A stretch of DNA of 64,000 bases from an uncultured Planctomycetaceae bacterium (GTDB lineage Bacteria; Planctomycetota; Phycisphaerae; SM23-33), in the NCBI GenBank assembly GCA_964557575.1, contig CAZLBC010000001.1, positions 2,296 through 66,295 of the forward strand. The letters are read 5' to 3'. Below, piece after piece: positions 2,527 to 44,410 of the stretch; positions within the stretch are counted from its first letter, which is position 1; the number at the start of each line of letters is the position of its first letter. The notes beneath the pieces are model-generated. The model ran no database searches, had not been told where the DNA came from, and saw only the letters and a list, made by a program, of their open reading frames with translations. The position numbers and the translations under genes were made by a program.

Positions 2527-5500
2527 TTAGTTCGCGCGGAGTTCCTGTTCCTCTTGGCAGTTCGGACCGGAGCAGAACAGCGGGTCTTCGCCGTCCGAAC
2601 CAACGTATTCGGACCAGTCAAGCGGACGGATCGCGGCGCGCCGACGGTTGTACTCCTCTTCCGTGATCCCTTCCTGCGGCGACTGCGCGTACACGCCCGC
2701 CGCCGTGTGCGGAAGAAGCGAAACCGATTTCGTAACGGGAGCCAGCGTGGACAACACGTCTTCGATCTGGTCCTCCTCGTGCATCGGGTTGAACCGGTAC
2801 AGTTTCATGCCGGTTGAGTCGCTTGTTATCCGTATGGCGGAATCCGCGTACTCCTCGCTTTCGGACAGCGTCCGCAGGATTCGCGGCGCGTCGTGCGGGT
2901 CGATGATCGGGTCGTGCAACCCGAACAAAAAGCCTTGGAGTTCATCAGAGTTCGGCAACGCTTCCGGCTTCCACGCCTTTGTCAGGACCCACTTCGGTTT
3001 GAAGAAGAGAGTATTTGACACCGCATTATCAGACCACTCCCTTTGCACGAACATGAGGTTCGCGGCCTGCTCCCACAGACTCGCCTCCGTCGCGGGCTTC
3101 GCCGGTCCTTGAAGAACCGGGAACTCGAAGACGAGCGTTTTCGGGTTGACCTTGTCCGGTTCGCAGGGAACCCCGGCGTCCTGCAAGACAGACACGACAG
3201 GGGCCGTCTCGGAGACGCGCACGCGCATCAGCGTGTGGCGGAACGTCGGGTACCCGATCCCGCTGGTCCGGCCAGCCAACTTGGGCGTGGTTCCTCCCGG
3301 TTTCACGGTCGTGACGCGGATGCTTTCCGGGATACCGGCTTCGGCCGCGAGATCGCGGTTGACTTCACGAATCAAGTTGTAACCGTCTCGGAGCCACCGG
3401 GTGACCTTGTTGATCGGATGCGCCGCCTTCCAACCGGTCAGGTCGACGAGACCGACCCCGATGCGCCGGTTCCGCGCGACGACGCGGTTCGTTTCAGGAG
3501 AGTGCGTCGGAAGCAGGTTGACGCTGCTGCAGTAGATCGCGGCGTACCGGCACGCGTTGAGCCAGTCTTCGACGGTATTGCACCGCGTCGGGAGCGTCTC
3601 GGCGATGTTGCACGTTTCGAACGATTCCAAGGGGACCTCGCCGCACTGTTTGGACGAAACCCACACTTCCTTGTCTCGGCCCCCGTCGGTCGTACCCGCG
3701 AAACCTCCGATGAAGAAGCGGTGTGTTTCGTCCACGGTTCCGTTGTACACGTCTTCGTACCCGTCGAACTCCACAGATATAACTTTGTGGTTATACCCGT
3801 CGGCGCGTTTCTCCAAGTCCTTCCACGACTGGAACGGCGAGGACTTCCGGCAGATTTCAGAGGATACCCCGGACGCCCTGCACGCTTCCACCCATTCCAT
3901 CTTCTTCGGTGTCCGCCCCAGTTCAAACGACAAGTCCAAGAAGACTGCGATCTGTTGTTCCCGGACGTTCTCCCGGCGCGCGTCAAACGTCTTCTTCCTC
4001 CCCTCACGGCGTTTCGCGATCAATCCCGGGTCGGAGTTCATCGCGGCCAGCGAGACTTCGTGAGAGGCGTACGCTTGCTCTCTTCGGTTGGACGGTACGA
4101 TAAACGTTTCTCCTGTCGCTTCACAGACCTTCGTGACCATGACGCGCCCGTCAACAATACCCGCTTCCAGCCCGGATTCCAACAGTTCGTGCAACAGCCG
4201 CACGGTACGGGGGTCGCAATCGGAGAAGTCTTCGACTCCCGCCTTCGCGGCGCACCGCTTGGCGAACGCCGTAATCGTTCCAAGTTCAGCCTTCCGGAAT
4301 TTCGAGAACGACGTCGGAAGATCGCGAGTGACGGCGTACTCCTGCCATTCTTGCTTCGAAAACCTGCGACCGAGATGCCCGGCGAGGTTCACCCCGTGTT
4401 CTAAGAGCGCATCGTTAGTCACGCCGCAGTATCGGGAATTGCTCTCTCCGTCCGAGTGCTCAGACAGATGCGGGAACTCCGATCGGATTTCGAGGTTTTC
4501 AGTCCGGTTATCCGTTTTGCGGCCGTTTATGTGATGAACATGAAGTCCCTGCCGGGGTTCGATCCCGAAGTGCGCCTGCGCGATCAGCCTGTGTTCAGCG
4601 CGCGTTTCGCCGCCAATTGAGAACGTATTGTACTGATCGGCTCTCGATTCACTGCGTCCGTCCGGGAAGTACCGGCTCAAAATACGGAGGGAGTCCCCGC
4701 ACGAGAGTTCTTCGACGGCCTTGGTTTCCTGTCCGCCGCGCAGGTACAACTTGTGGTTCCCCGTCAAGCGCAGGATGTCGCCGCTGTCCAGCACGACCTT
4801 GTACACCGCGACTTTCTTGCCCGTCGCCCGGGGACGGCGCATCCAGTGGATGCCCAACGATCCGTCCAACAACTCGGTGAAGACCCGGACGTCCTGTCCG
4901 GATTCCGCGAGTTCCCGTATCGGGACGGCTCCCCGTCCGTCCGCCGTCAAAACCAGCGTATCTCCAGTCATACACGGGTTCAACCCGGTCGCCTTGTCTT
5001 CCCGCACGTTCGACGCTTTTCCGACGCGCAGGCGGCCGCGCTTCACGTTGACCATGTTCAGGTACCCCGGCTCGCCGTTCTTGATCACGCGTTCGGCGAT
5101 CTCTCCGAGCTTGGCGAAGTCCTCGGGGGTTTCGAGAATCACGCTGTTGTTCGACATCCATCCGATTTCGGCGCGATCCGGATGCTTTTCGTAGTCCTTC
5201 AAATCGGCGAACGTCGGATCGCTGACCGGGGCCAACGAAATTTCTGCGCTACGCCGGACATTTCCGGCGACAACGCAGCATCCGATCGCGTTGAAGATGT
5301 CGACCTTCAACCGCATGGAATCGTATTCGTGTTCGGGGTCGAGAATTTCCGATCCGGGGTTGATGTTGTTGCGCCATTCGCGGTATTTGCGGAAGTACGT
5401 TCGGATTCTCTCGTGCAGTTCCTTGAGCGGGCCGGGACCGGAAGCGCGTCCGCCGAATCCCCGGATCGGCGATCCCTCCGGACGGATTTCAGAGTAGTCG

Positions 5501-6159
5501 AACGTCCACTTCGGCTGGTCCGGGCGAAGATACGAGTCAATCAACCGTTGAACGGATTCGCACCAGCCTTCCCGGCTGTCCGGGATCACGTAGGTTTCTT
5601 CGTTTTCCTCGGGAGGTTCGACGACCTCCGTCAAGTCGTTGCGGTACGGGCGGAATCCGACGCCCACGCCGTTCATCAGGGCGTCCATCGTCCAGTACGC
5701 GGCTTTTCCGATGTTTTCCCTCACCTCGACGAAGGCGCAGTTGAACAGGGCCATTCCGCCGCGTTCGTAGATGTAATCGGTGCCCATCGCCCACAAGCCC
5801 CGGCCCGGCGGCATCCATTCCATCTTGAACGCGGAGACCGCCATTTTGTACGCGGTCTCCTGCCATTTGTCTTCGTCCCATCGGATGCGGTTCCGAATGT
5901 AATGGTTCTTCCGGATGGACAGAACGCCTTCGATCACGCGCTTGATCACTTGCCACCAGCGTTCCTGCCCGATCTGGACAGGATCGCCGTTTTCATCGCG
6001 GACCAGCTCTCCGGTATCCCGGTCGCGGTCCCAAACAGCGCGTGAATACGTGCGGTAAAAGACGAACTCGCCGATTTCCCCGAAGTCCGGTTCCATCGTA
6101 CGGAGATTGTAAACGGTCGATTCGGCGAGGGTGAAGCGGTTTTCTTTGGGTACGAACAC
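2527..6159 (-). CDS. nrdJ: class II (adenosylcobalamin-dependent, NrdJ-like) ribonucleotide reductase, intein-containing
   Basis: Has the FVFYRTYSR N-terminal motif. The catalytic-site motif NP-CGEVPLESFETCN is split by a 443-aa insert. GTG start with GGAGG 6 nt upstream (alternative ATG at 6096, or the ORF start at 6231). Confidence 0.8.
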   Translation of the reverse strand: MFVPKENRFTLAESTVYNLRTMEPDFGEIGEFVFYRTYSRAVWDRDRDTGELVRDENGDPVQIGQERWWQVIKRVIEGVLSIRKNHYIRNRIRWDEDKWQETAYKMAVSAFKMEWMPPGRGLWAMGTDYIYERGGMALFNCAFVEVRENIGKAAYWTMDALMNGVGVGFRPYRNDLTEVVEPPEENEETYVIPDSREGWCESVQRLIDSYLRPDQPKWTFDYSEIRPEGSPIRGFGGRASGPGPLKELHERIRTYFRKYREWRNNINPGSEILDPEHEYDSMRLKVDIFNAIGCCVVAGNVRRSAEISLAPVSDPTFADLKDYEKHPDRAEIGWMSNNSVILETPEDFAKLGEIAERVIKNGEPGYLNMVNVKRGRLRVGKASNVREDKATGLNPCMTGDTLVLTADGRGAVPIRELAESGQDVRVFTELLDGSLGIHWMRRPRATGKKVAVYKVVLDSGDILRLTGNHKLYLRGGQETKAVEELSCGDSLRILSRYFPDGRSESRADQYNTFSIGGETRAEHRLIAQAHFGIEPRQGLHVHHINGRKTDNRTENLEIRSEFPHLSEHSDGESNSRYCGVTNDALLEHGVNLAGHLGRRFSKQEWQEYAVTRDLPTSFSKFRKAELGTITAFAKRCAAKAGVEDFSDCDPRTVRLLHELLESGLEAGIVDGRVMVTKVCEATGETFIVPSNRREQAYASHEVSLAAMNSDPGLIAKRREGRKKTFDARRENVREQQIAVFLDLSFELGRTPKKMEWVEACRASGVSSEICRKSSPFQSWKDLEKRADGYNHKVISVEFDGYEDVYNGTVDETHRFFIGGFAGTTDGGRDKEVWVSSKQCGEVPLESFETCNIAETLPTRCNTVEDWLNACRYAAIYCSSVNLLPTHSPETNRVVARNRRIGVGLVDLTGWKAAHPINKVTRWLRDGYNLIREVNRDLAAEAGIPESIRVTTVKPGGTTPKLAGRTSGIGYPTFRHTLMRVRVSETAPVVSVLQDAGVPCEPDKVNPKTLVFEFPVLQGPAKPATEASLWEQAANLMFVQREWSDNAVSNTLFFKPKWVLTKAWKPEALPNSDELQGFLFGLHDPIIDPHDAPRILRTLSESEEYADSAIRITSDSTGMKLYRFNPMHEEDQIEDVLSTLAPVTKSVSLLPHTAAGVYAQSPQEGITEEEYNRRRAAIRPLDWSEYVGSDGEDPLFCSGPNCQEEQELRAN
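3646..4974 (-). mobile_element. intein with HNH homing-endonuclease domain inside nrdJ
   Basis: Begins CMTGDTLVLTADG (block A) with block B RLTGNHKLYL. Has an internal HHINGRKTDNRTENL HNH motif. Block F/G-like EDVYNGTVDETHRFFIGG ends ...SSKQ followed by extein Cys (CGEV), so it appears to end in Gln rather than Asn. Confidence 0.7.
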
Positions 6160-6362
6160 GGGCGGGCCTCCAAACGGTTGATGTTGCGCACAATCCTGTT
6201 TTATACATCGCCCGGATTGCGGTGTCCACACTCAATACATCGGGCAGGGAGGGCTAATCCGAACATAAACTTTTCGGGATTTTACAAAAAACATCACAAG
6301 TCGCTGGTTCCGTCCGGATTTTCAAACGAACTTGGAAACCCGGACGGACCCTGAAAAAATTT

Positions 6363-8418: not shown

Positions 8419-8559
8419 ATGCGCAGCGAAACCGCCAACCACGACAACATCAATTTTCTGAAATCCGCCCGAGCATTCACAATCACGATGTGGACGATAT
8501 CCATCGCGTCCGTCGTTTTGGGGATCGCCGCGCTCGTTCTCCGGGCGTTCGTCGACTAG
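8419..8559 (+). CDS. small membrane protein (46 aa)
   Basis: AAGGAG lies 6 nt upstream of ATG. Hydrophobic segment WTISIASVVLGIAALVL. Confidence 0.4.
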   Translation: MRSETANHDNINFLKSARAFTITMWTISIASVVLGIAALVLRAFVD

Positions 8560-9929
8560 CTGAAGAACATCCGGCGTATCTGCGTCCGGCGCGATTCCGT
8601 CAACGTCTCTTCGATTTCTTCGTCGTCTTCGTCTTCGTCTTCGTCTTCGTCTTCCGCGTCCACGTCGTCCGGCGGAACGTAGGCGTACGCCCGCTCCGCC
8701 TTCGCCCCGAACTGCGCCAAGAAATCCTCGAAGTCCTTCGAGAATTGTTCCCAGTCGACTTTCGGCTCCATGACGGCCGCCGTCTCGGGTTCCTCGAAAA
8801 GAATCGACTCTGAAACATTCGCGTATTCGCACTCGTCGGAATGCGCTTTGTCGTAGACTTCCCAATCAGCATCCTTGTCTAACCAGTCGTCATCATCGTG
8901 TTCCGTTTCTTTTTCTTCGAAGTCCAAAATCATACTGTCGTTCGAAATGCTTTGAATACCGAACTCAGCCGCGAGTTTGTCTGCCCACCCTTTATAAATC
9001 CTGCTCTTCCGGGGATTGTCGCCAATTCCAAACAGTTTCCATTTAAAACCATCCTCAAGAAGTGCTGGGATAATTTCGTCGTGAACGATCCTGTACACAG
9101 TGTGGAATATCCGGAGTGTTGCGAGTCCAGAGGCTTCTTCATCTGCGTCCCCGAACACGAAATCTTCGGGACCAAAATGAATTTCGTAGTCAAGTGGGCT
9201 TGTTGCGTACCAGCCGTCTCGCTTAACAATAAGTTTGAACTCGCCAACCGGGGTTGAAAACAGGTAATCTGGAAAAACTAATAGACCGTATTGGTTCTTT
9301 GTAACCTCACCCGTTGGTTTCCATGGATAAGGTTTGTCCCCGATCCGTTCAGCAATGCTGTAGTCTTCAAACAACGCGCGAAGAACGAGTTTCCGAGACT
9401 CCTCGACCTTGCCGGGTTTCGGCCGCCCCGCCACGGTGATATGAAATTCAAGCTCCATCCCGTTGTCGGCCGTCGGAAGCGGAGTCAGCCCCAACGACAT
9501 GCGCCTGCGTTGCAATTCCGGGGATTCGATACGGATGAACCAGACGCGGTCCATGGCGTCCCATCCGATCGGGTCGACATCGACCATGTCTTTCAGCCAA
9601 AATTCAAACTGGTCGCCGCCGGTGAGGATCGCGTCTTTCCACCCGTCCCTCCCGTAAACCTTCTGAAGCTCTTCAACCTCGGAAGCGCGGACGACGGTAA
9701 CATGCGGGTTGTCGTAGCGGGGTTCGCACGGAACGCCGTTATACTGCAGAGCTTGAAAAGCGGACGACGGGATTCCCTTGTCGACCTGCAGGAAAGCCCA
9801 TGGTCCGTTGTCGCCTTCCTCGGCCTTCAACGTTCCCGTGAATGTCACGGTTTGCGCCCGGAGTTCCGGCTCCCCGACGTAGGCTTCAACCAGCGAACGG
9901 ACATGCGCGCTCTGGTTTATTCGCATCAT
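8556..9929 (-). CDS. 2H phosphoesterase (LigT/CPDase-like) fused to a C-terminal domain with poly-acidic tail
   Basis: Two H-x-T/S-x motifs (PHVTVV and FHITVAG) about 80 aa apart in the N-terminal 180 aa. The C-terminal DEDEDEDEDEDDEE tail is encoded by a (GTCTTC)n repeat. Confidence 0.6.
   Translation of the reverse strand: MMRINQSAHVRSLVEAYVGEPELRAQTVTFTGTLKAEEGDNGPWAFLQVDKGIPSSAFQALQYNGVPCEPRYDNPHVTVVRASEVEELQKVYGRDGWKDAILTGGDQFEFWLKDMVDVDPIGWDAMDRVWFIRIESPELQRRRMSLGLTPLPTADNGMELEFHITVAGRPKPGKVEESRKLVLRALFEDYSIAERIGDKPYPWKPTGEVTKNQYGLLVFPDYLFSTPVGEFKLIVKRDGWYATSPLDYEIHFGPEDFVFGDADEEASGLATLRIFHTVYRIVHDEIIPALLEDGFKWKLFGIGDNPRKSRIYKGWADKLAAEFGIQSISNDSMILDFEEKETEHDDDDWLDKDADWEVYDKAHSDECEYANVSESILFEEPETAAVMEPKVDWEQFSKDFEDFLAQFGAKAERAYAYVPPDDVDAEDEDEDEDEDDEEIEETLTESRRTQIRRMFFS
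8621..8657. repeat. (GTCTTC)n hexanucleotide repeat
   Basis: Encodes the DE-repeat tail of the 2H phosphoesterase protein. Confidence 0.7.
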
Positions 9930-9939: not shown

Positions 9940-12282
9940 TTACCTGATCGTTGTGACGTCGTCCCCGTAATTCTCGACCTTCGGTTCGATCAGCGGCATG
10001 CCCGATTCGATCGCGGCTTCGATCCGAGTAAGTTCGTTCATGAACCGGTCCCTGCGCCAGCCCTGCACGTTGTAGACGTTGGTGTCGGGGCGCGTGGAAT
10101 AATACCGGGGTTCGTCTTCGTCGACGAAAACCAGTCGCTTGACGTCGTTCGGTTGTCCCGGGAGACGCGATGCGTAGTCGTCGATATTCCACACCGCATC
10201 GGCCGCGCCGTGCGTAATGAACTCAAGGAACCGCGTCCAGTCCGTTTCCCACCATGTTTTCTTTTGTGTCAGGACGACGCGCGCCGGAGGCTTCGTATCG
10301 TCACGTGTTTGCTGCTGTTGCTCGGCTTCCGGCTCCGGAAGTTGTTCGCCTTCCGGCTCCGTCGCGGCCTGCGGCATTCCAGCAGTCGGAGGCCCGTAGT
10401 CGAACGCGACTTCCGGGGCTTCCCGGCGCGGATCGTCCATGACTGACTGCTCAACGAGCGCGCGGAGCGACGGGTCCATACAAAGCGACGCGCCGAGTTG
10501 AGACGCGGAACGCTTGGTGTAAAAGTACACCGCGCGGCCGTTGAATGGTTTGACCCGGTACACCGCGTATTTTCCTTCGTCCGGCATCTTGTCGACGGAC
10601 TGCACGCCGCTTTGCCGCATCTTGTCGATCAGTTTCTCTTTCCCGACCGACCACGCCATTCCCTTGCCGCCAGCGTATCCGGCCATCTTGTAGAACGGGG
10701 AGTGCGCGTACATCTGCTGAAGGAAGTTCTCCGGGTTGTTCATCTGACTGTCAAGCCAGTTCGGCGGCGATCCGGTTGCCCGGTATCCCTGTCCCGGAGC
10801 CTGTTGCTGCCCTCGCGCTTGCGGTTGTCCCGGAACTTGCTGCTGTCCCGGGGCCGGGACGAATACGTTTCGCGAACCCGGAGCGGCTTGCTGTTGCGCT
10901 CCCCTCGCGGCTGGTGCGGCCTGTTGTTGCCGGGGAGCTGCCTGTTGTTGCCGGGGAGCTGCCTGTTGTTGCCGGGGAGCTGCCTGTTGTTGCTGCGCGG
11001 CGGCCGTTTGCTCACCGCGTTGCTGCTGTCGAAGCATTCGGAGTTCGTGCTTTTGCTGGTCTCGCGCGGCGACGCGTTGCTGCCGTTCCGGACTGGTGTA
11101 ATGCTGCCACCCGGCTTTTCCGACGGCTCCCGCCGCCCGGCCCAAAGCTCCCAGCGTTTTCCCGGCGACTCCGGCTGCGCCGCGCACGGCTTGTCCCGCA
11201 ACCTGCGCACCCTTTTGAAGAACCTGACCGGATACACGGGGGTCGCCGCTTTTGGAAACGGTTCCCGTTCCGGACCACCCGCCTTCGTAATTTGTATGAA
11301 GCTCGTATCTTTCCCCGTCCGGCATCATGACACGAAGCCACGAATTGTCGCCGGACAACGCGGTCTGCAAGCTCGGCCCGGTCGCGCGGACTTCGAACAA
11401 AAGACGTTCGCACTCCGAGAAAAGAGTTTCAATGACAAGCGGAACGCGTCCGCCCAACGCTTCCGCGAGCGATTCCTTCCACTCCCCGGCCTTCTTCAGA
11501 AATGCTTTGTAACTCCGATCGATTTCCTGCATGTTCTGCTGTTGCATCTCCGGAGTCATATTTCGGGATTGCAGCAACTTGTTGAGCATATCGACAAGTT
11601 TCTGTCCGTATTGCTTCGCTTCGGGACTCGCTTGCTGCAGCAACTGCTGCACGTGGTCCCGCGCCTGCGTGGCGTTCTGAACCAAGTCGGGGCGAAGCTG
11701 TTGGCCGCTTTGTTCCTGCCCGGCCGATTGCGCTCCTGAACCTTCCGGCGCGCCTTGCGCCCAATTTCGAGCCGCTTGTCCGGCGGATTTAACTCCCTGA
11801 TCAATTCGCTGCTGACCGCGCCCGACGGCTTGGTCCGCTCGCTGAAGCATCTCGCCGCCTTTCTCGACGGCTTGCCTTCCTTTCGCGGCGACCTGTTTCC
11901 CCTTTTCCACGGCTCCCTTGGCTGCGCGCGTGACGTCTCCCTGCTCCGGGTACAGAGCGGCGACTTCCGCCGCGAACGTCTTCGGGTCGACCGGCTGGCC
12001 GTTCTTCAGAACTTGGTCCGAGAACTTCAACGTGTCGGCCGCGAACTTCTCGGCGTGTCCGAGGTAGGTTCGGGCCATCGGCACGTTTCGCCACGCCGCT
12101 CCCTGTTCAGCTCCCGGCGTCGTTGGCAACGCCGCGCCCGCTCCGCCTTCCGGCTGCCCGGGCTGCGGTTGAACAGCTTGCGGATCACCTTGAACCGCTT
12201 GCGCCTGCGCCGCTGCGGCTTCTTCCTGCTCACGCAGGATTCGACGAACTTCCGGCGGGATACTCAGTTCTTCGTTTTTCAT
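9940..12282 (-). CDS. large Gln/Ala-rich repeat protein (possible virion-internal/ejected protein)
   Basis: 780-aa ORF. ATG overlaps the end of the downstream gene. Contains QQQAAPR x4 from a 21-bp tandem DNA repeat. The C-terminal 200 aa are non-repetitive. Confidence 0.55.
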   Translation of the reverse strand: MKNEELSIPPEVRRILREQEEAAAAQAQAVQGDPQAVQPQPGQPEGGAGAALPTTPGAEQGAAWRNVPMARTYLGHAEKFAADTLKFSDQVLKNGQPVDPKTFAAEVAALYPEQGDVTRAAKGAVEKGKQVAAKGRQAVEKGGEMLQRADQAVGRGQQRIDQGVKSAGQAARNWAQGAPEGSGAQSAGQEQSGQQLRPDLVQNATQARDHVQQLLQQASPEAKQYGQKLVDMLNKLLQSRNMTPEMQQQNMQEIDRSYKAFLKKAGEWKESLAEALGGRVPLVIETLFSECERLLFEVRATGPSLQTALSGDNSWLRVMMPDGERYELHTNYEGGWSGTGTVSKSGDPRVSGQVLQKGAQVAGQAVRGAAGVAGKTLGALGRAAGAVGKAGWQHYTSPERQQRVAARDQQKHELRMLRQQQRGEQTAAAQQQQAAPRQQQAAPRQQQAAPRQQQAAPAARGAQQQAAPGSRNVFVPAPGQQQVPGQPQARGQQQAPGQGYRATGSPPNWLDSQMNNPENFLQQMYAHSPFYKMAGYAGGKGMAWSVGKEKLIDKMRQSGVQSVDKMPDEGKYAVYRVKPFNGRAVYFYTKRSASQLGASLCMDPSLRALVEQSVMDDPRREAPEVAFDYGPPTAGMPQAATEPEGEQLPEPEAEQQQQTRDDTKPPARVVLTQKKTWWETDWTRFLEFITHGAADAVWNIDDYASRLPGQPNDVKRLVFVDEDEPRYYSTRPDTNVYNVQGWRRDRFMNELTRIEAAIESGMPLIEPKVENYGDDVTTIR
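10917..10998. repeat. 21-bp tandem repeat x4 (CTGCCTGTTGTTGCCGGGGAG)
   Basis: Read directly. Encodes QQQAAPR repeats. Confidence 0.7.
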
Positions 12283-12288
12283 GTCGAA

Positions 12289-13287
12289 TCAGCCCTTGCG
12301 GTTGCGGTTCTTTCGCGGACCTCTGCGTCCGATCGGTCCGCGCGGTTGACGCTTGCGACGTTTCTTCGCCTTTTCGTCGTCGAAATCGGGACCGTCGTCG
12401 ACCGGCATCGGGCAGCGGCCCGCGCCGCGACCGGTCCGAGGGCCTTCGCCTTCCGGTCCGGTGCCGTCGAGATTCCGTTCGCACAGCATGCGCCCGATGA
12501 CGCCGCGCATCGAATCGTGAACCGACCCGACTTTCGACCCGGTGTACTCGTCGCCGGTTTCGCTGTCCTTGTCGGACCTCTGGTACATGGAATTTCCGAC
12601 CGTCATGCCGGAAGTTCGCGGCAAGTCGGCGGTCTGAACGCCGGGTTTCTGGTTCCCGGCGGCGGGCGGAATGTCCGCCGGGTCGTCGCCTGATCCGCCT
12701 TCGCTGGCGGGGAAATCCTTGTGGCCGATGGAAGTGATCGCGCTTCCCGACGTAGGGATGGTCGTCGTGGCATGCGCTTTTTGACTGGCGAGGTTGTCCG
12801 GGTCGATGTCGCGGCGGTTGTCCGCGCGGTCGCGTTTCTTGGCCGGACCGTGCCCTTTGACGCCGAAATCTCCGGGAAGCGTGTGCGCCGGGTTCATCTC
12901 CGCTTCGGTCACCCGGTTGGTCAAATCGAGGTCGTCGAGCATGCCGAGTTGAATAACGATGTCTTGAACCGCCTCGTTCATGTAATCGATCAGACCCGTG
13001 TCCACAACACGCTGTAGGAAGTCGAGCATCTCGGAGTCGGAACCGTTGCCCCGTTGTCCGGACGTCAGCCTGTCCAGCGACTCGGCGACATACTCGACCG
13101 GGTCGATGTCCGGCGCGTCCATCGGAACGCCCATCCCGCCGCCGGGCGACGGCATCGGACCCCAGTCGGCCGACGCTTTCGGCCCCTCGATCGAAATGTC
13201 TTCCACGATTTCCCGCGCGCCCTCGCAGCCGATCTGCGTGTGGGACGGCATCAGGTTCTCTCGAATGATCCGGCGAATGTCGCTCAT
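12289..13287 (-). CDS. hypothetical protein with polybasic C-terminus
   Basis: Trimmed to Met19 behind TGGAGGA. The out-of-frame 414-aa Arg-rich ORF covering this region was rejected. Confidence 0.5.
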   Translation of the reverse strand: MSDIRRIIRENLMPSHTQIGCEGAREIVEDISIEGPKASADWGPMPSPGGGMGVPMDAPDIDPVEYVAESLDRLTSGQRGNGSDSEMLDFLQRVVDTGLIDYMNEAVQDIVIQLGMLDDLDLTNRVTEAEMNPAHTLPGDFGVKGHGPAKKRDRADNRRDIDPDNLASQKAHATTTIPTSGSAITSIGHKDFPASEGGSGDDPADIPPAAGNQKPGVQTADLPRTSGMTVGNSMYQRSDKDSETGDEYTGSKVGSVHDSMRGVIGRMLCERNLDGTGPEGEGPRTGRGAGRCPMPVDDGPDFDDEKAKKRRKRQPRGPIGRRGPRKNRNRKG

Positions 13288-13337
13288 GGGATAATCCTCC
13301 ATTCCGCAGGACATCATACGCCGGGGCGCGAAATAGA

Positions 13338-13526
13338 TCAAACGTCGTCTTCGACGGTTTCACATCCTCGGGGACATGTCCGGGTTCCCGATCCGCCGGT
13401 CCCCTCGCACAGCGGACACTCGACGGGACCGACTCCGGGTTCGTCCCATCCGCCCCTGCCAGCGCAGCCGTCACATGGAATCTCGACCATCTTCTCGCCG
13501 CACACAGGGCATTTAACGAGCTTCTC
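13338..13526 (-). CDS. zinc-ribbon protein (four CxxC, DnaJ-type CxxCxGxG)
   Basis: TTG start 7 nt after AAGGAG. Contains CPVC, CDGCAGRG, CPLCEGTG and CPRGC. Confidence 0.4.
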   Translation of the reverse strand, partial: EKLVKCPVCGEKMVEIPCDGCAGRGGWDEPGVGPVECPLCEGTGGSGTRTCPRGCETVEDDV

Positions 13527-13615: not shown

Positions 13616-16477
13616 CTAAAATGGGGCGACCGCAAGTTCCGATTCCGGCAGACGGGACAGGTCGTAAATGTTTGCCTTTTCCGCTTTCTTCGGCTTCGCG
13701 TCGGCGTGATCGCCGAGGTCGACCGGAGCTTCCGCCTTCCGGGAGTTCAACGCGGCGTCGATGTTGCGCGCCTTCTTCGCGATCGTCTCGGCGATGTACG
13801 CGTCCAGCGATTCGTCGACAACGATGTAGTAGCTGTTGACGCATTGCGTTTGCCCGATCCGATTGGCGCGGTCCTCGGCCTGATCGACATCGCCCGGCCG
13901 CCACGGCAGTTCGGCGAAAACGACCGACGTCGCTTCGGTCAGCGTGATTCCTTCCCGGCAGGCTTGGATCGATCCGACGAAGACGCGGATGCCGTCGTCG
14001 TTCTGGAAGCGGTCGATCGACTCCTGCTTGGCCGCGTCGTCCATGCCGCCCTGCACCTGCACGACGCCGTATTCGGAAAGCGCGGCGGCGACTTGGTCCT
14101 GCACGTCGCGGTGATGCGCGAAAACGATTACTTTCTTGTTGCCGGACAGGACCTGATCGGCGAACTCGGCCGCGTGCTTGATCTTCAGCGATCCGATTTC
14201 CGCGCGAAGTTTGCTCATTTCTTCGAACAGGGCCGGGCTTCCCCGCAATTCGGAGATCGCTTCTTCGGCGTTGCCTTCGTTGATGTCTTCGAGCGAAATC
14301 CCGGCGTCCGACAACAGCTTGCGCTGCCGGGCTAGAATCCGCGACGCGCCCTTGACGTCCGACGGGTCCAACCGGACGACAGTGCGAATCTTGCCGGGGA
14401 GTTCCGTCAGGACTTCGGACTTCATCCGGCGCAGCATGAACTTCGAACGCATGATGCGCTGCAATTCATCGAGATTCGTCGCGCCGTCGTCCACCCAGCC
14501 CCAGCGGCCTTGATGCGCGCCGCAGTAACGGCGGGTGTACTTCTTGTAACCGCGACCAAGGCCCTTGGGATCGAGGTGGCGCAGCATCGCGTACAATTCC
14601 TTCGGACGGTTCGGGCAGGGGGTTCCGGTCAGGAAGTAGTTGCGGTTCGCCCGGTGCGCGACGCCTTCGACCTCGCGCCTCTTGCCGGAATCCCAGTAGC
14701 CGAACGCGATTTTCGCGCGGGTGGCCGTCCGGGTGTTCTTTCCGTAGTGGGCTTCGTCCCACACGGCGACGTCCCACGAGTAGTTCATCAGCCCGGGGCG
14801 GACGTTCTTCTGCGACAGGTTCGACCATCCGCAGATAACGAAATTCGCACGGGGGTCAATCGTCTTGTTGCCGTTGACGACTTGGATGGTCCAATCGCCG
14901 ACGAGCCACTTCTCGGCTTCCCGCTTCCAGTTCAGCCGCACGCTGGGCGGACAAACGACCAGCACTTTGCGGACGGACTTGTCGGCGTTGACCGCGCCGA
15001 GGACCTGAATGGTGTTGTGTGTCAGGATCGCGTGTTCCGTAACGTACAATCGGTCGGCGGCGTCAACGGAAATACAAACGCTTTCCACGTCGCGGACGTA
15101 CTCGACAGACTTAACCGTGCGGACGGGGTGCGCGTGTTTTCCGGGGTTGTACTTAGAAACCTTGCGACGGATAGTAAAGGGAGCTATCGTTTTTGGCAGG
15201 CGAATACGCACGGGGTACTCCGTGGGTTTCCCCTCGGAAGATCGATCGTATTCGTGTACAGACGCGATGCCGCCCAAACACTCCACCAGTTCTTGAACAT
15301 CGCAGGCGAGCGACCGGCTCGTCGTGTGATACGTCAGCCGGTTCCGTTCGGCACTGCAGCCGCCATCGCAGTCCATGAGTCCCTGCAACAGAGCGATACG
15401 CTGCGCCGGGGAGGATTCAAGGTACTGACGTGGTATGCGTTTGTCCTTGCTTCCGACGTCCAACCCGAGTTCCCTGATGCTTCTGATCGTTTCAAGAATA
15501 ACCGTGCGCGACGCGTTATCATACGTTTGGATCGCCCCGATTTCCGCCCCTGCCTTGACGATGTTTTCAACTATCTCGTCCAAGTCGGCGGCGTTCACCG
15601 TCGCCACTGCGCTGCTGCCCCTGAGACCCCCGTTCGCTATCAGTACGCCGAGCACGTACGCGGGCACGGGCAGTTCGGCGGCAGCACCAAACCGGGCAGG
15701 TCCAGATAGCATAGGCAACTGCAGCTTCACACCTTCCAAGTTCAGCTTCGTCGCTCTACCCTTCTCGTGCGATAACTCGATAGTCGGCCGATCCAGAAGC
15801 TGCTGGGTAGTTAGCGTCAGGTCGCTCAAGGTTCGCCCCCCGCGCCAGTATTTGACAGTCCACAGGTGCTCTGGACCGGACTCTACGCGGGACTCGTCAC
15901 TGAAGGTAACACGGTAACTTGGCTTCACACCCTGCGGGAACACGCCGACGACGTTCACGGGATGTCCGTCGCTGCCAATGACACGATCGCCCACACGCAG
16001 TGAGCCTATCGTCGTCCACCCGGTCGGTGTCAGCACGTGTGTGTCCACAGGTTGCTGCTTTCCGAGGCCCATGTCGTCGGCCAACAGGACGTCGCTGCTG
16101 TTGACGAGGTACTCAATGCCCGCCTTCTGAAACGGCATGTAAGCGAGTCCCTCGGGGGCCGGGGCGTCGAAGTCGCCGGTCGTGGCGCGGGAGCCGTTGA
16201 TGCGGTCGAGGATCGGCTGCACGAGAGCTTTGACGGCGTCGTCGCAGTAGTCGATCAGCGGCACGCACTTGTCCGCTTGTTTCGCCCGGCAGAACCACGT
16301 GCAAGGGGTGCCGGTTTCAGAGCCGGACTTGTCGAACGCGAACCCGACGCCGCCGCGCTTCCTTGAAAGGGCCGAGACGTCGTTCCAGTACGCGTCGCGT
16401 TCGGCCGGGCTTCCCCGGAAGGCTCCGGACAGTTCCGCGACGATCAGGTTCTTGTCTTTGCTCAGGGTCAGTTTCAT
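13616..16477 (-). CDS. SNF2-family helicase, intein-containing
   Basis: GGAGGACACC RBS. The P-loop LLADDMGLGK-[349 aa]-TIQVLGAV reconstitutes DEMGLGKT. C-terminal helicase motifs are present (DEAHYGKN, LTGTPCPN). Confidence 0.8.
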   Translation of the reverse strand: MKLTLSKDKNLIVAELSGAFRGSPAERDAYWNDVSALSRKRGGVGFAFDKSGSETGTPCTWFCRAKQADKCVPLIDYCDDAVKALVQPILDRINGSRATTGDFDAPAPEGLAYMPFQKAGIEYLVNSSDVLLADDMGLGKQQPVDTHVLTPTGWTTIGSLRVGDRVIGSDGHPVNVVGVFPQGVKPSYRVTFSDESRVESGPEHLWTVKYWRGGRTLSDLTLTTQQLLDRPTIELSHEKGRATKLNLEGVKLQLPMLSGPARFGAAAELPVPAYVLGVLIANGGLRGSSAVATVNAADLDEIVENIVKAGAEIGAIQTYDNASRTVILETIRSIRELGLDVGSKDKRIPRQYLESSPAQRIALLQGLMDCDGGCSAERNRLTYHTTSRSLACDVQELVECLGGIASVHEYDRSSEGKPTEYPVRIRLPKTIAPFTIRRKVSKYNPGKHAHPVRTVKSVEYVRDVESVCISVDAADRLYVTEHAILTHNTIQVLGAVNADKSVRKVLVVCPPSVRLNWKREAEKWLVGDWTIQVVNGNKTIDPRANFVICGWSNLSQKNVRPGLMNYSWDVAVWDEAHYGKNTRTATRAKIAFGYWDSGKRREVEGVAHRANRNYFLTGTPCPNRPKELYAMLRHLDPKGLGRGYKKYTRRYCGAHQGRWGWVDDGATNLDELQRIMRSKFMLRRMKSEVLTELPGKIRTVVRLDPSDVKGASRILARQRKLLSDAGISLEDINEGNAEEAISELRGSPALFEEMSKLRAEIGSLKIKHAAEFADQVLSGNKKVIVFAHHRDVQDQVAAALSEYGVVQVQGGMDDAAKQESIDRFQNDDGIRVFVGSIQACREGITLTEATSVVFAELPWRPGDVDQAEDRANRIGQTQCVNSYYIVVDESLDAYIAETIAKKARNIDAALNSRKAEAPVDLGDHADAKPKKAEKANIYDLSRLPESELAVAPF
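15011..16057 (-). mobile_element. class-3-type intein with LAGLIDADG homing endonuclease in SNF2 P-loop
   Basis: Starts QQPVDTHVLTPTG (Gln at position 1, block A DT). Trp in block B (EHLW), Cys in block F (ESVCISVD) and Thr in block G (ILTHN|T) give the WCT signature. LAGLIDADG motifs YVLGVLIANGG and LLQGLMDCDGG. Confidence 0.7.
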
Positions 16478-35458: not shown

Positions 35459-38400
35459 TTACGCCTCCCTGTTCTGAATCATTTCCCGGACCTTTTTAAG
35501 CGTCGACTCCTGATAGGTCATCGCGCCGTCGACGGTCGGAGTCAACAGTGTACCGACCTGCTCGTCCTGCATGCAATTCCAAACCGCGCCGCACACGGAG
35601 TCTGAAACATCCTTGCTGTTGTGCACAAAAACCCCGACCGAAAGAGCGAAATTATTCCACTCGTCGACTTCAAGGTCGTAGACGGGAACCGGCTCGTCCA
35701 GAGTAACCGGAATAACGTACCGGACTCGATGGTTGTCGCCGGTTTCATCAGCCAAGTACCGGTCCCGGCTTTCGTACCCGCCATTACGTGGAAACTGACG
35801 AGTTATCGGCATCAACCGGTCCCGCACGGGTACGAGGTCTTTGGCGCGCTTATACGAACCGTCTCGGAGCATCCATAGGTGTTCCGGAGTGCACCGAGCA
35901 ACCGCGCCGTTGTCGAGTATCACGTCAATCAGGTTCTTCGTGGTCTTCGTTTTACGCCCGCGCGCCCAACCGGCGACGATACTCCCGTCAGGCCGTGCGG
36001 AATAGACCCATCCTTCCCAACCGTCCAATTCCGAAATCCGGCGACACGTCCCGTCAAGCAGCGGGATTCGGGTGTCACCCGTAAAACAACCGCCCGGAGG
36101 GTGATCAATCTTGTCTTCGTCAGTCAACTCCAACGCGAGCAACTCGTCCTCAAGAACCTCGTGTTTCGGCCATGTAATCCGGTTCTCGTTCAGGATTGTT
36201 TTGAAAACATAATACTGTTCCGGACGCCTGTCGAGCGTCAGATACCCGGCTTCGATCCGGGACTTCTTCAGGTATTGAATTTCCCCCTGACCGGCCGGAG
36301 AGTCGTACGTTACTTTTCGGAGGACGAAGTTTTTCTCTTTCAGCCACAGGATGAAATCGCGGATTTTCTCCCAGTCCACTTCGTCCGTGTCAGGCGTGAT
36401 CTGAAGCGCGAAGTCGACCTCTATCGTCAACTCCGTACGCCGGTCGTAGTGTCCGGTGTCGGTACGGACCTGCCGCGAAACGGCTTTCGTCGGGTGGACC
36501 ATCGCGACGCCGACGGCGTCGCCGTTTCGCGAAATGTCAACATGGATGTACCGGGGGGAGTGCGGCATGCGTTTCGGGACGTCGCGGGAAGATCGAACCG
36601 TAAGGAACTCTTCGCGGAGAACGTAGTCCTGAATGCGGTCCGGGCGTTGAAGGTCGATCTTCATCGGACAGTCCCAGCGCGCTCCCATCCCGGCAACGAA
36701 CGGGTGCGGAAGAACGGCCTCCCCGTCGTTCTCCCACTCGACGGAAGCCTCTATAATCGGCTGGCCGCGAGGGAAGAACGGATTGATCGCTTCCGACGGT
36801 ATCCCGGCGATGTCGCGCAGGGAACCGATCGGGTCTTCGTTGAACGCGCGGAAATCCTCCACCGGGACGTCAATAGTGCGAACGCCGCGCGGAGGATTTC
36901 CTCCCTTCTTGATGCGAAACTGTCCGAATCCAAGGTTTTCCACGCCGTCGAGACAATGCGGCTTCACGAATTTGTTGCCGACAACAAATCGAAACGTCAA
37001 CCCCGATTCCCGCCGTCCGGATTTCGGCTGAAATTCCCACTGCGGGCCGCCGACGACGTGCACGTTCCGGTTGTTGGCAACCTCGCGCTTCCGAATTTCC
37101 AAGTACGAGTTTGACGCCTTCGTGGACGAAATGTGAATGATCATGCCGGACGTCGCGAACCGCGATTCCATGCGCCGGGAAGTTTGCTGGACGAGGCTGT
37201 GGACCTTCCCCTTCTCTTCCAACGTCTTGGCCTTCTTCTGCTTCTTCGTCTGCATGTGGAAGTTCATTTCGTCGATGGCCAGACAAAACAGGTTGTGTCC
37301 AAGAACGTGAAAAGCAGCGGAACCGATCATAAACTTAATATTCTTGGGGAAATGCAGTTCGCTGTACTGCTCCTTGTACCAGAACTTCTCCTTGAAATAC
37401 GGCGACTGGTCCAGAAGACCGAGAAGCGTCGACATTCCGACATCCGTCAATCTCAACGTCGCGTTGTAAATACCGAAGACGATCGGAGACCCCTTGGACA
37501 ACCCGTGGTATCCGGCGGGATCGCGCAGGCAGGACAACTGATAAAGTTTGAAGATCATCATGACCATGGAATTGAACGTGTTGTGACTCATGAATCCGTC
37601 GGAAACGTAACTCGGGTCGTCCTCCACCGACAAGTCGTAGCAGTGCGCGTGATCGTCGTCCACGGTTTCGACCGTATCAAATAGCAGGTGTCCTCTGGCG
37701 ATAGCGCACAGAACGTCAGGAAGCGTTCCCGCCGCATCCAAGACCTCGTTCAAGAGCCGTCTGGTTGCACGTTGTTTAACGAGGCGTCTCAGGAGCCGGG
37801 ACGGTCCCTTGCGCTTTTCGTACCCGTCTGGAGCCTCTCCGCGTTTGTGCCGGGGCTGCATCTTTCGAAGTTCAGCGACGCATGTCTCAGGAATCCTGAA
37901 CGAAAACGAGTGATCACAGTTTCGGTTCCACCGGGAAGCCCGTTCGATCAAAGCCGCTTGTTTCCGGTCGTGGTAGTGACCAATCTGCGCGGCGAACTTT
38001 GCTTGAGAGTCCGTACCGACAACCCGAACGGTATACGCCCGCCCTGTAACGTAACGAGTGCCTGCGTCAGTATACGCGGCTTCCTTTGACGTAACCGAAC
38101 AGTACATTCCGAGCGACGTCAAAAGAACCCGAACCTGACGCGCTAATTGCTCAGACGTTGTCGTGAGGGAACAGTCCGAATCGCCGCTGTACCCGTCGCC
38201 CGAGAACAAACCCCTGAGATACGCGCAAACTCCCGCTCGGCTGCTTCTGAAAACAACTGGAGGAATCGTGCGGGTCCCGCTTTTTTGACCTTCGCCTTCT
38301 CGAAGAACCGAATCCGGTCTTGGTTTAATCGTGAACTCTTTTGAAAACTCAGACCGTGCATCTCGGCTTCGTTCGTGAACCCACTCGATTCCAAGTTCTT

Positions 38401-39172
38401 CCCGAACGAAATCAAAAAGGTTCAAAACATAATCGTATTCCTCTTCGTGTACGCTTACTCGTGCATACCTGACGTCTGGTGTCCAACAACCTTCAGCCGT
38501 TTCCCAACCGAGGGCTTCCATCGCTCCTTCCGAAAAACCTGAATTTGTCGGGAAAGCGTACGGGTATTCCAGAACACAATCGCCTTCGACCAAGTCTTCC
38601 AACGCCACCCATTCGACGTCAAGCCCTCGAAGAACACGAATACGGTGGTTCGGTCGGCCTTCAAATACGTGTCCGTGTTTTGTAGTCACTTTCTTAGTTG
38701 AAGTCAGTCCTTCGTTGTGATACTCGGAAATCGGACAGTACCCTGACTCAGTCAGAACCTCGACGTTCATCCTGTTATCGACAATATCTTCGATTGGAAT
38801 CATCCCGCGAGACGTCGAGATCAGCGTACCTCTTCGGCTACACTTCCCGATTCCAATTCCGCCATCGATGATCACTTCGTTGATCTGATTCCTCGGGTCG
38901 AACGTCGTCAACAATTCCTTTTGCCATCGCGGCCAGATGTCCACGCCGCCGAGGTAGTACGGATTCGTGATAAACTCGTCGATTCCGACCGGAGGCTCGT
39001 CGTAGTCCATCTGCGTAATAAAATCCCGGGACAGCGACTTGCCGCTGTTCCGCAGCGATTCTTCAATTCCGCGAATCGCCCACGTCTTTTCACTGTCCGA
39101 CAACGAATCGAAAAACCGAAGGACTTCCGAGTCGAGCTTCGCCAGCGCAGCGCGAATTTGGTCGACGTTCAT
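35459..39172 (-). CDS. terL: terminase large subunit containing two inteins
   Basis: Walker A GGIGIGK-[intein]-TFNSM reconstitutes GIGKT. ATPase and nuclease regions are present. Position is upstream of the portal gene. Confidence 0.8.
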   Translation of the reverse strand: MNVDQIRAALAKLDSEVLRFFDSLSDSEKTWAIRGIEESLRNSGKSLSRDFITQMDYDEPPVGIDEFITNPYYLGGVDIWPRWQKELLTTFDPRNQINEVIIDGGIGIGKCSRRGTLISTSRGMIPIEDIVDNRMNVEVLTESGYCPISEYHNEGLTSTKKVTTKHGHVFEGRPNHRIRVLRGLDVEWVALEDLVEGDCVLEYPYAFPTNSGFSEGAMEALGWETAEGCWTPDVRYARVSVHEEEYDYVLNLFDFVREELGIEWVHERSRDARSEFSKEFTIKPRPDSVLREGEGQKSGTRTIPPVVFRSSRAGVCAYLRGLFSGDGYSGDSDCSLTTTSEQLARQVRVLLTSLGMYCSVTSKEAAYTDAGTRYVTGRAYTVRVVGTDSQAKFAAQIGHYHDRKQAALIERASRWNRNCDHSFSFRIPETCVAELRKMQPRHKRGEAPDGYEKRKGPSRLLRRLVKQRATRRLLNEVLDAAGTLPDVLCAIARGHLLFDTVETVDDDHAHCYDLSVEDDPSYVSDGFMSHNTFNSMVMMIFKLYQLSCLRDPAGYHGLSKGSPIVFGIYNATLRLTDVGMSTLLGLLDQSPYFKEKFWYKEQYSELHFPKNIKFMIGSAAFHVLGHNLFCLAIDEMNFHMQTKKQKKAKTLEEKGKVHSLVQQTSRRMESRFATSGMIIHISSTKASNSYLEIRKREVANNRNVHVVGGPQWEFQPKSGRRESGLTFRFVVGNKFVKPHCLDGVENLGFGQFRIKKGGNPPRGVRTIDVPVEDFRAFNEDPIGSLRDIAGIPSEAINPFFPRGQPIIEASVEWENDGEAVLPHPFVAGMGARWDCPMKIDLQRPDRIQDYVLREEFLTVRSSRDVPKRMPHSPRYIHVDISRNGDAVGVAMVHPTKAVSRQVRTDTGHYDRRTELTIEVDFALQITPDTDEVDWEKIRDFILWLKEKNFVLRKVTYDSPAGQGEIQYLKKSRIEAGYLTLDRRPEQYYVFKTILNENRITWPKHEVLEDELLALELTDEDKIDHPPGGCFTGDTRIPLLDGTCRRISELDGWEGWVYSARPDGSIVAGWARGRKTKTTKNLIDVILDNGAVARCTPEHLWMLRDGSYKRAKDLVPVRDRLMPITRQFPRNGGYESRDRYLADETGDNHRVRYVIPVTLDEPVPVYDLEVDEWNNFALSVGVFVHNSKDVSDSVCGAVWNCMQDEQVGTLLTPTVDGAMTYQESTLKKVREMIQNREA
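35618..36088 (-). mobile_element. intein 2 (mini-intein) in terminase C-terminal domain
   Basis: CFTGDTRIPLLDG start, block B CTPEHLWM, ends VGVFVHN|S. 157 aa with no endonuclease domain. Confidence 0.7.
37580..38842 (-). mobile_element. intein 1 (LAGLIDADG-type) in terminase P-loop
   Basis: CSRRGTLIST start, block B TKHGHVF, LAGLIDADG-like AMEALGWETAEG and AYLRGLFSGDGY, ends SHN|T. Confidence 0.7.
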
Positions 39173-39173
39173 G

Positions 39174-40241
39174 TCACTCCCCCAGTTGCTTCCTGCGGAT
39201 AATCTTCTTGAGGTGGCGCGGAACCGGCCATTCGAGAAGCATCGAAACGACTTCGTTTATTTCTTGCCAAGTCGCGTCGGGGAACCGCCGCTTCAACCAC
39301 TTCGTATCCGCGCCCAGCGCAGCGAAAGCCCACACCTTGTCCAACCTCGGAACACCTGTCGGAGAACCGACGACGTCCAAAAGCGTGGCGGGGGTGTGCG
39401 ACCGGCAAACGGCGTTCATCCGAAGACTGTGGTGGATCACGTTCGACACCAAGTTGTTCCGTGTCCTCCATTTCTGGACGCGCTGACATCCGCAACCCAT
39501 GACTCGCGCGATTTCGCCGTCCGACCATCCGTCAGCCCACATCTTACGGAAAAACTTTTCGTCCATCCCGAATTTACGCTGCTTCCCGGTCGGAACGCCT
39601 AATTTTCGAAGCCACCGCTTCAACGTGGACTTCGCGACTCCGACGCGTTCCGCGAGTTCCGCGTCGGACATCATCATTCCGCGATCCAAAACCAGTTTCC
39701 TTACCTGCTGCCCCACGGAAACGAACAAAAAGTCCCGGGCCTGCTGCGGGTCGCGGTTCATCCCGAGTTCGGACCGGAGTTTGACAACCGTCGTCTTGGC
39801 GCGTCCCACGGCTTCCGCCAGTTCCCTGTTGCTCAAATGCGGGTTTTCCGTCAGCACCCGTTGTATCTTGTTCCGCAGACGGGTTCGTGCGGCTTTCGAC
39901 CGTTTCGTCGCGACGCCGAGCTTGCGCCGTATGTACGACATCATATCACGCGACACGCCGAGAACCTCGGCTGCTGTTTTACATTTTGCTTTCGGGTTGT
40001 CCGCCATAAACCGCTTGTACCGCTCGCACAATTCGTCCATCTGCGCCGCCGTTCGTTTCGCCGGGCGTCCGACGCGAATGCGAATGACGGATACGTCGGA
40101 CTGGCTGATCATCAAGGCTTCGGCTATTTCAGGGTTCGGGGCGTCCGGGTGTTCATCCAAATAGTCAACCACCGCCTGCCGAAGTCGTTTCGTTTCCGCT
40201 TTCGTGCGACGTTTCTTCTTCTTCTTCTTCTTGCGCGCCAT
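39174..40241 (-). CDS. DNA-binding protein with five tandem HTH repeats (putative terminase small subunit)
   Basis: AGGAGG RBS. N-terminal poly-Lys from a (AAG)n run. Repeated HTH-like units ending ...RKLG or ...ELG. Located directly upstream of terL. Confidence 0.45.
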   Translation of the reverse strand: MARKKKKKKKRRTKAETKRLRQAVVDYLDEHPDAPNPEIAEALMISQSDVSVIRIRVGRPAKRTAAQMDELCERYKRFMADNPKAKCKTAAEVLGVSRDMMSYIRRKLGVATKRSKAARTRLRNKIQRVLTENPHLSNRELAEAVGRAKTTVVKLRSELGMNRDPQQARDFLFVSVGQQVRKLVLDRGMMMSDAELAERVGVAKSTLKRWLRKLGVPTGKQRKFGMDEKFFRKMWADGWSDGEIARVMGCGCQRVQKWRTRNNLVSNVIHHSLRMNAVCRSHTPATLLDVVGSPTGVPRLDKVWAFAALGADTKWLKRRFPDATWQEINEVVSMLLEWPVPRHLKKIIRRKQLGE

Positions 40242-44033: not shown

Positions 44034-44410
44034 TCGGTATCGTCTTCCGTGTAATCGAAAACAACGCTTTTGTGTTCAAACCACCGCTTCACGAAATCGC
44101 GGATCGCCGCGTCTCTGTCGGGGTCCCTGAAACAGTCCAAAATCCCCTCGCGGAACCGCTGGTTCGGAAGCTCGGCCAAGAACATGTGAAACAGCGGAAG
44201 CGCGATCCGACCGTGCATCGCCTCGGCCATGGCGCGCTCGACCTTTACTTGTTCCTGTATCCCGGAAACGATCGATCGCGCCTGCGGACTTTCCGGGTCG
44301 CCGACGGCCTTGCGAAGAAACCGAACGATGTTCGGACACTTCGCTTCGACGTCGCGGACCTGCTCCGGCGTGATCGGATCGGGTACATCGGGATGCTTCT
44401 CATTCACCAT
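44030..44410 (-). CDS. hypothetical protein
   Basis: GAGGAAGG RBS. ATGA coupled. Confidence 0.5.
   Translation of the reverse strand: MVNEKHPDVPDPITPEQVRDVEAKCPNIVRFLRKAVGDPESPQARSIVSGIQEQVKVERAMAEAMHGRIALPLFHMFLAELPNQRFREGILDCFRDPDRDAAIRDFVKRWFEHKSVVFDYTEDDTE

Follow-up and report, generated by a model that had tools for sequence, protein, structure and literature searches.

Class 1 inteins excise themselves from precursor proteins by four established steps (PMC4031507), and functional examples that end in Gln or lack the penultimate His have been documented (PMC4031507). Gln-terminated inteins shown experimentally to splice include the ribonucleotide reductase (RNR) intein of Chilo iridescent virus (CIV) and the Pab and Mma Pol II inteins. 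The CIV intein splices better with Gln than with Asn, while the Pab and Mma Pol II inteins are slower with Gln (PMC4031507). In the Pho Pol II intein, the block F His has been proposed to activate Gln cyclisation (PMC8229266). An insertion point at which the catalytic Cys of an RNR acts as the +1 nucleophile was published in 2009 (PMC2677866), and inteins carrying an HNH nuclease in frame have been known since 1997 (Dalgaard et al., as cited in bioRxiv 10.1101/2025.01.02.630785). The latter survey describes HNH inteins as rare and non-canonical, and the proteins in which it places them are DNA polymerase, capsid, terminase and thymidylate synthase; RNR is not among these. Gln termini, HNH-type inteins and the NPCGE insertion site of RNRs are, therefore, each already published. 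Here we describe an intein in a class II RNR gene, nrdJ, that carries an HNH nuclease, splits the NPCGE motif and ends in Gln. It lies in a 64,000-nucleotide stretch of contig CAZLBC010000001.1 (assembly GCA_964557575.1, an uncultured Planctomycetaceae bacterium; positions 2,296 to 66,295 of the forward strand). We refer to this stretch as the window, and give all coordinates relative to it.

We conclude, with a probability of about 85%, that the element belongs to the class 1 inteins, carries an HNH_3 homing endonuclease in frame, and interrupts the NPCGE motif of a phage class II RNR between its Pro and its catalytic Cys. Codon by codon, the intein occupies 3646..4974 on the minus strand (as do all features below unless stated otherwise), i.e., 443 residues from Cys1 to Gln443, which matches exactly the interval proposed in an initial annotation made from the DNA sequence alone; codon reading, Pfam, the family search and the structural model all bear on these limits. 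The codon for Cys1 is at 4972..4974, in the context ...DKATGLNP/CMTGDTLV... (the slash marks the junction), and the C-terminal junction reads ...VWVSSKQ/CGEVPLESFETCN. The terminal Gln443 of the initial annotation was borne out: it is encoded by CAG (3646..3648), followed directly by TGC (3643..3645), the codon for Cys+1, a residue that serves both as the nucleophile in splicing and as the Cys of NPCGE. The usual His-Asn is missing from this junction, as had also been noted, the terminus being Lys442-Gln443, and no His-Asn occurs anywhere in the last 25 residues of the intein (HRFFIGGFAGTTDGGRDKEVWVSSKQ).

The position of the junction was fixed by comparison with homologues. NPCGE was uninterrupted in all 66 intein-less relatives of the whole protein, which places the insertion at NP/CGE, between Pro and the catalytic Cys, as first proposed; the initial annotation had allowed for a canonical His-Asn further upstream with another extein junction, and no such upstream His-Asn exists. 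When spliced in silico, the extein was 63% identical over residues 31-783 to the closest of these intein-less homologues (P0016), with no gap at GLNPCGEVPLE, and this gap-free alignment requires the removal of exactly residues 420-862 of the precursor. We also considered the register NPC/.../GE, and rejected it because it would leave Met1 and Gly+1, with a nucleophile at neither junction. The codon CAG differs at two positions from the Asn codons AAY, and an error in sequencing is disfavoured because an independent assembly encodes an identical protein (see below). Gln is in fact the normal state in the family to which this intein belongs, neither an oddity nor an error, and since it is the majority terminal residue of that family, its presence in the window copy is not accidental.

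The host gene is an open reading frame (ORF) at 2527..6231, with 1234 codons if counting begins at the first GTG. The NrdJ precursor itself likely starts at codon 25, also a GTG (6157..6159), matching a database model of 1210 amino acids (P0001); the independent Logan assembly mentioned above (P0121, in the same cluster) encodes a protein identical to that model. The N-extein thus extends over 4975..6159 and ends ...DKATGLNP, and the C-extein (CGEVPLESFETCN...) over 2527..3645, including the stop codon at 2527..2529; both were delimited by codon reading and alignment with homologues. In Pfam, the ORF matched RNR_Alpha (PF17975, E=2.2e-21) and the B12-dependent RNR insertion domain (RNR-II_ins_dom, PF21995, E=1.1e-13), with Intein_splicing at residues 430-841 and HNH_3 at residues 547-582. 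Both RNR domains are those of a class II (adenosylcobalamin) enzyme, and NPCGE is back in place after splicing in silico. The best NCBIfam model for the extein was TIGR02505 (adenosylcobalamin-dependent ribonucleoside-triphosphate reductase, RTPR; E=4.6e-69, 233 bits), although assignment to the RTPR subfamily is approximate because this score is below the equivalog cut-off of 340 bits. Judged by its sequence, the 1234-codon ORF appears to be a functional-looking precursor, neither a fusion nor a pseudogene, and the mature NrdJ would have about 767 residues.

When the intein was searched alone, Pfam returned Intein_splicing (37.8 bits against a cut-off of 35.8) and HNH_3 (PF13392, E=1.1e-10; 41.4 bits against a cut-off of 24.8). 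The N-terminal lobe of the HINT fold (residues 1-115, 4630..4974) was matched by TIGR01445 (intein_Nterm) over residues 1-77 (37.8 bits, cut-off 24.5), and residues 3-82 aligned with the DnaE intein in PDB entry 7qil. This lobe holds block A, with C1, and block B, with T71 to H74 (in LRLTGNHKL, 4753..4764); both are canonical, in agreement with the initial annotation, block B having the Thr-x-x-His pattern (T71-x-x-H74). The HHINGRKTDNRTENL string named in the initial annotation is present and matches the HNH_3 model. The nuclease motif itself (...LHVHHINGRKTDNRTENLE..., residues 128-163, 4486..4593) was identified by Pfam and by PHROG HNH endonuclease families, and when aligned with the family it has the beta-beta-alpha-metal pattern (His-His ... 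Asn ... Asn ... His; VHHINGRKTDNRTENLE...H..EH). It is followed by a region of helices and beta strands (residues 185-390, 3805..4422; secondary structure from AlphaFold2), which presumably binds DNA and which contains a degenerate zinc ribbon (4054..4125; C284, T287, A303 and V307). HEARO repeats (PF18780) were considered for the helical part, where two weak repeats were seen, but at E=0.19 they are too weak to claim; the same model matches two relatives with E<=0.0014. The C-terminal lobe of the HINT fold (residues 391-443, 3646..3804) consists of block F, an extended beta-hairpin and block G (...SSKQ). Block F reads VYNGTVDETH, with N411 at position F:4 and H418 at F:13 (3721..3744).

A sequence search of the PDB matched DnaE and DnaB inteins, with the N-terminal lobe and block F aligned, and in the DnaE intein 7qil the residue aligned with N411 is the block F Asp; the residues common at F:4 in studied inteins are Asp, Cys and Trp, and Asn is not listed (PMC4031507). 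An AlphaFold2 model, built from the intein with 10 flanking residues on each side and 35 relatives, had a mean predicted local distance difference test score (pLDDT) of 87.1. With this model as the Foldseek query, the top 37 PDB matches (E<=1e-3) were all inteins or bacterial intein-like (BIL) domains, which are related to them, including the Ssp DnaB, Npu DnaE, Mtu RecA, PI-PfuI and VMA inteins and the NrdJ-1 split intein. The last two strands of the model are long (residues 419-428 and 434-442). The alignment to the Pfam profile ends at I422, with seven positions of the profile and 21 residues of the intein still to come; the hairpin between blocks F and G in this family is therefore about 14 residues longer than usual. 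C-terminal intein models of the TIGR01443 type gave no match to the intein in the NCBIfam scan, as expected because block G is atypical.

The features of a class 1 intein that we found were Cys1, Thr-x-x-His in block B, Cys+1, the HINT fold, and restoration of GLNP-CGEVPLE on removal; those that we did not find were the penultimate His and C-terminal Asn of block G. Because both deviations are documented in functional inteins, the Lys442-Gln443 terminus does not bar the element from class 1. In class 2 inteins (KlbA-like), position 1 is Ala or some other residue that is not a nucleophile, and the WCT triplet is absent; Cys1 rules out this class. The signature of class 3 is Trp at B:12, Cys at F:4 and Thr at G:5, with no Cys, Ser or Thr at position 1 (PMC2807308); this class is ruled out by Cys1, by Leu76 (two residues past His74), by Asn411 at F:4 and by Ser441 at G:5. 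We also considered an endonuclease encoded antisense to nrdJ, but the plus-strand ORFs in question (3043..4404, 453 residues; 4753..6045, 430 residues; 4088..4534; and 3557..4063) had no Pfam match with E<=0.1. ORFs of this kind overlapping nrdJ and the intein are most likely spurious, as expected at about 60% guanine plus cytosine (GC).

To define the family, an exhaustive phmmer search with the intein was made against 1.84 billion cluster representatives. It gave 3524 matches with E<=1e-3, and 252 representatives with E<=1e-30, so that membership of a family is far beyond chance. The best matches were 44-51% identical across all 443 residues. All members examined were inserted at N-P/C-G-E in the catalytic subunits of RNRs, although the host enzymes differed in kind, some being RTPR-like NrdJ proteins and others PF02867/PF00317 barrel proteins. 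When one genome per GTDB species was searched, the block F signature VYNGTVD[ED] was found at 109 places, confirmed by tblastn, which puts the family in at least 109 species of bacteria and archaea. The taxa included Chloroflexota, phyla of the candidate phyla radiation (CPR), Acidobacteriota, Eremiobacterota, Deinococcus, cable bacteria and Asgard archaea, and the carriers included a cultured organism, Deinococcus frigens DSM 12807. No full-length relative was found by tblastn in 50,697 deposited phage genomes, where the only matches were to partial, distant HNH inteins; a megablast search of the same genomes with the nrdJ gene gave no match, and a scan of IMG/VR gave no close relative of the window copy (best 36% identity).

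The terminal residue in 181 proteins of the family was Gln in 120, Asn in 61, and never anything else. The penultimate residue in these proteins was Leu, Arg, Lys, Pro or others, but in no case His. At 80 genomic loci the terminal codon was CAG (28), CAA (14), AAT (28) or AAC (10), i.e., Gln at 42 and Asn at 38, and a Cys codon followed directly at every one of the 80. The residues expected to act in splicing were close to invariant in an alignment of 155 members: C1 (155/155), T71 (152/155), H74 (155/155), N411 at F:4 (151/155), D415 (148/155) and H418 at F:13 (153/155), and the window copy carries the family residue at all six positions. Passing between CAR and AAY takes two substitutions, by way of His or Lys codons, and neither His nor Lys was the terminal residue in any of 261 sequences. 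Gln (CAR) and Asn (AAY) toggle within a single bacterial family, the Pyrinomonadaceae (loci L012-L026), and the terminus also differs within Deinococcus (L047 versus L079). With Fitch parsimony on a neighbour-joining tree, 38 Gln/Asn changes were required compared with 42.5 in shuffles, i.e., there was no phylogenetic signal; because the tree is unreliable at such divergence, we do not claim any number of independent switches.

In some respects the window copy departs from its family. The zinc ribbon has the consensus K-x-C-E-x-C ... R-E-x-x-x-C-S-x-x-C, with all four Cys present in 143 of 155 members. In the window copy (KVCEATGETF...REQAYASHEV) just one of the four is kept (C284), and the others are replaced by T287, A303 and V307; the HNH motif is intact despite this loss. 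The replacement of three zinc-ribbon Cys suggests a decay of homing function specific to this copy. The terminus is S-S-K-Q, compared with N-N-x-Q in most relatives, although Ser at -3 was found in 31 of the 181 family proteins and Lys-Gln termini in 7. The GC content of the intein (0.589) is close to that of the two exteins (0.589 and 0.621), and the same holds at third codon positions (0.727 for the intein; 0.752 and 0.793 for the exteins). Because its base composition matches that of the host gene, the intein is probably an old, compositionally ameliorated resident in a late part of the homing cycle, in which the splicing residues would be held in place by selection on the RNR and decay would be under way in the presumed DNA-binding part of the endonuclease.

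Past mobility of the intein is indicated by relationships that are decoupled from those of the exteins. The inteins most similar to it (48-50% identity) belong to RNRs whose identity to the window NrdJ is only about 27%, or which cannot be aligned with it; conversely, the closest intein-bearing exteins (52-55% identity) hold inteins that are just 42-44% identical, and no intein is present in the most similar extein overall (63% identity). The Spearman correlation between intein and extein scores was 0.18. In other homologous phage NrdJ proteins the same site is occupied by LAGLIDADG inteins that end ...SN.

If the intein splices by the class 1 pathway, step 1 would be an N-S acyl shift at the Pro(-1)-Cys1 bond, and step 2 a trans-thioesterification that moves the N-extein onto Cys+1. 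In step 3, Gln443 would cyclise to a six-membered glutarimide, releasing the intein, and in step 4 an S-N shift would form the Pro-Cys bond and regenerate NPCGE. In all of 261 sequences the last residue is either Gln or Asn, which argues that the side-chain amide is the functional group in step 3. The helper in that step would probably be the block F His418 instead of a penultimate His; because no member of the family has a penultimate His, H418 is the obvious candidate for activating the Gln. Since Cys+1 is the Cys of NPCGE, where the thiyl radical forms, the RNR would necessarily be inactive, its active-site loop unformed, until the intein had been spliced out.

Several points weigh against this interpretation. 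Splicing is deduced here from the sequence and the structural model, not directly. The window copy is atypical at -3 and -4 (Ser-Ser instead of the consensus Asn-Asn) and at R419, where the family has Asn, so that its splicing activity may be reduced or conditional, and with Asn at F:4 the catalytic details may differ from those of the textbook pathway. It has no close relative (the next best is 51% identical overall), and those available are too distant to gauge selection on this copy. The loss of zinc ligands is, in addition, no proof that the endonuclease is inactive. It is conceivable, though unlikely, that the intein is a splicing-dead relic and nrdJ in effect a pseudogene, the phage relying on the RNR of its host or on one encoded outside the window. 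Such a relic could explain the deviations at the C terminus (SSKQ for NNxQ, R419 for Asn) together with the decayed zinc ribbon, and because the window is 64 kb of a 198-kb contig, a second RNR may lie beyond it. Against this, the 3.7-kb ORF is unbroken, both exteins are full-length homologues of functional-looking NrdJ proteins, and none of the residues known to take part in splicing has been lost; nor are the terminal deviations unique, given the relatives with Ser at -3 (31/181) and those ending in Lys-Gln (7). A true junction at some other place, where a canonical His-Asn would mark another boundary with the extein, is wholly improbable: in its favour there is only the rule that inteins mostly have His-Asn at their end (PMC4031507), and it conflicts with the lack of that pair in the last 25 residues, with the homologue alignment that fixes residues 420-862, and with the 181 relatives that have the same junction, with Gln or Asn directly before CGE.

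It is also unlikely that the intein splices without cyclisation of Gln, by a route involving the F:4 Asn and the long hairpin, or that it splices only conditionally, for example in response to redox state through Cys1 and Cys+1. For atypical termini it has been remarked that "other mechanisms are possible" (PMC4031507, Figure 3 legend), and this family unites Asn at F:4, the absence of His at G:6 and the hairpin of about 14 extra residues. Yet the terminal residue was Gln or Asn in 261 of 261 sequences, exactly the two whose side-chain amide allows cyclisation. A broader idea, which we regard as tentative and on balance doubtful, is that the whole family, more than the window copy, represents a distinct catalytic solution for the third step of splicing. 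This is prompted by the Gln majority, the lack of a penultimate His, the F:4 Asn, the long hairpin and the frequent interchange of Gln and Asn. The class 1 pathway ending in cyclisation of Gln443 remains the reading that we prefer.

The window is phage DNA: it encodes a T4-like portal protein (PF07230, E=2e-39), a terminase large subunit, an SMC-like ATPase and a glycosyltransferase. The intein in nrdJ is one of four in the 64 kb, the others being in a SNF2 helicase (one) and the terminase (two). In the SNF2-family helicase (ORF 13616..16477), a LAGLIDADG intein of 348 residues (15014..16057, minus strand) interrupts the P-loop, with the junctions DDMGLGK/QQPVDTHV...HAILTHN/TIQVLGA. Its first residue is Gln, not a nucleophile, and by eye it has the class 3 signature (Trp in EHLW, two positions past the block B His, Cys F:4 in SVCISVD, and Thr G:5 in T-H-N), so resembling the published class 3 Snf2 and DnaB inteins (PMC2807308). 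In the terminase ORF (35459..39172), a LAGLIDADG intein of 421 residues (37580..38842, minus strand) splits the Walker A motif (GIGIGK/C...SHN/T), and a 157-residue mini-intein (35618..36088, minus strand) has the junctions HPPGG/CFTGDT...VFVHN/S. Both are canonical, and the 659-residue product spliced in silico matches the terminase large subunit (phrog_2, E=1.5e-9). Directly upstream of the terminase gene is a 365-residue ORF (39174..40271, minus strand) with PHROG matches to helix-turn-helix DNA-binding and HNH-endonuclease-associated families and, weakly, to the terminase small subunit; this may be a stand-alone gene of homing-endonuclease-like or small-terminase-like type. Elsewhere in the window, a 457-residue ORF (8556..9929, minus strand) with a strongly acidic DEDEDEDED tail has a weak, sub-cut-off Pfam match to 2H-phosphoesterase ("Swiss Army Knife"), and the neighbouring large ORFs at 9940..12282, 12230..13474 and 44229..45686 have no Pfam match. 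The GC content is 0.46 at 62001..64000, compared with about 0.58 in the rest of the window.

Taken alone, the window carries little weight beyond the correct annotation of an NrdJ precursor. The wider point is that a terminal Gln, which tends to be mentioned as an oddity of a few inteins, is the most frequent state of a widespread family of RNR inteins, with hosts among phages, CPR bacteria, Chloroflexota, Acidobacteriota, Deinococcus, cable bacteria and Asgard archaea. Models that expect His-Asn may overlook or shorten such inteins, a risk suggested by the absence of any C-terminal intein model for the window intein in the NCBIfam scan. The family also amounts to a natural experiment on cyclisation of Gln versus Asn. 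If formation of the glutarimide here is as efficient as that of the succinimide elsewhere, it would provide a natural model for how step 3 is tuned, and a source of splicing tools.

Within the literature searched, which did not include most subscription journals or InBase, we found no paper on this HNH/RNR family or its Gln majority. Its nearest counterparts in the family itself are metagenomic proteins, including those from metagenome-assembled genomes, of the form VYNGTVDEFHNFFVGGF...NNxQ/CGE, which have the same architecture, the same site and a Gln or Asn terminus, and are 32-50% identical over the 443 residues. Examples are proteins of Andersenbacteria and of an archaeon annotated "HNH endonuclease", and that of Deinococcus frigens DSM 12807. 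The window copy differs from them in residing in a phage RTPR-like NrdJ, in having lost three ribbon Cys, and in ending SSKQ in place of NNxQ. With the CIV RNR intein and the Pyrococcus and Methanoculleus Pol II inteins it shares membership of class 1 and a terminal Gln followed by Cys, and the CIV intein, which we compare by description only, is like it in being a viral RNR intein. The Pol II inteins, in contrast, are mini-inteins in which the penultimate His is retained (His165-Gln166 in Pho Pol II; PMC8229266), where the window intein has Lys. We found no specific sequence kinship with the Gln-terminated inteins past the HINT fold, the Pab Pol II intein (2lcj) ranking 34th in the Foldseek search. 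The NrdJ inteins described in 2009 have the same insertion point, with the catalytic Cys as +1 nucleophile, but those at that site are LAGLIDADG-type, while the window intein has HNH_3 and a Gln end; the split NrdJ-1 intein of the same study sits one residue further on (PMC2677866). Like the in-frame HNH inteins already known, the window intein has its nuclease nested between the two lobes of the splicing domain, but the family to which it belongs, unlike the HNH inteins surveyed, is large and specific to RNRs.

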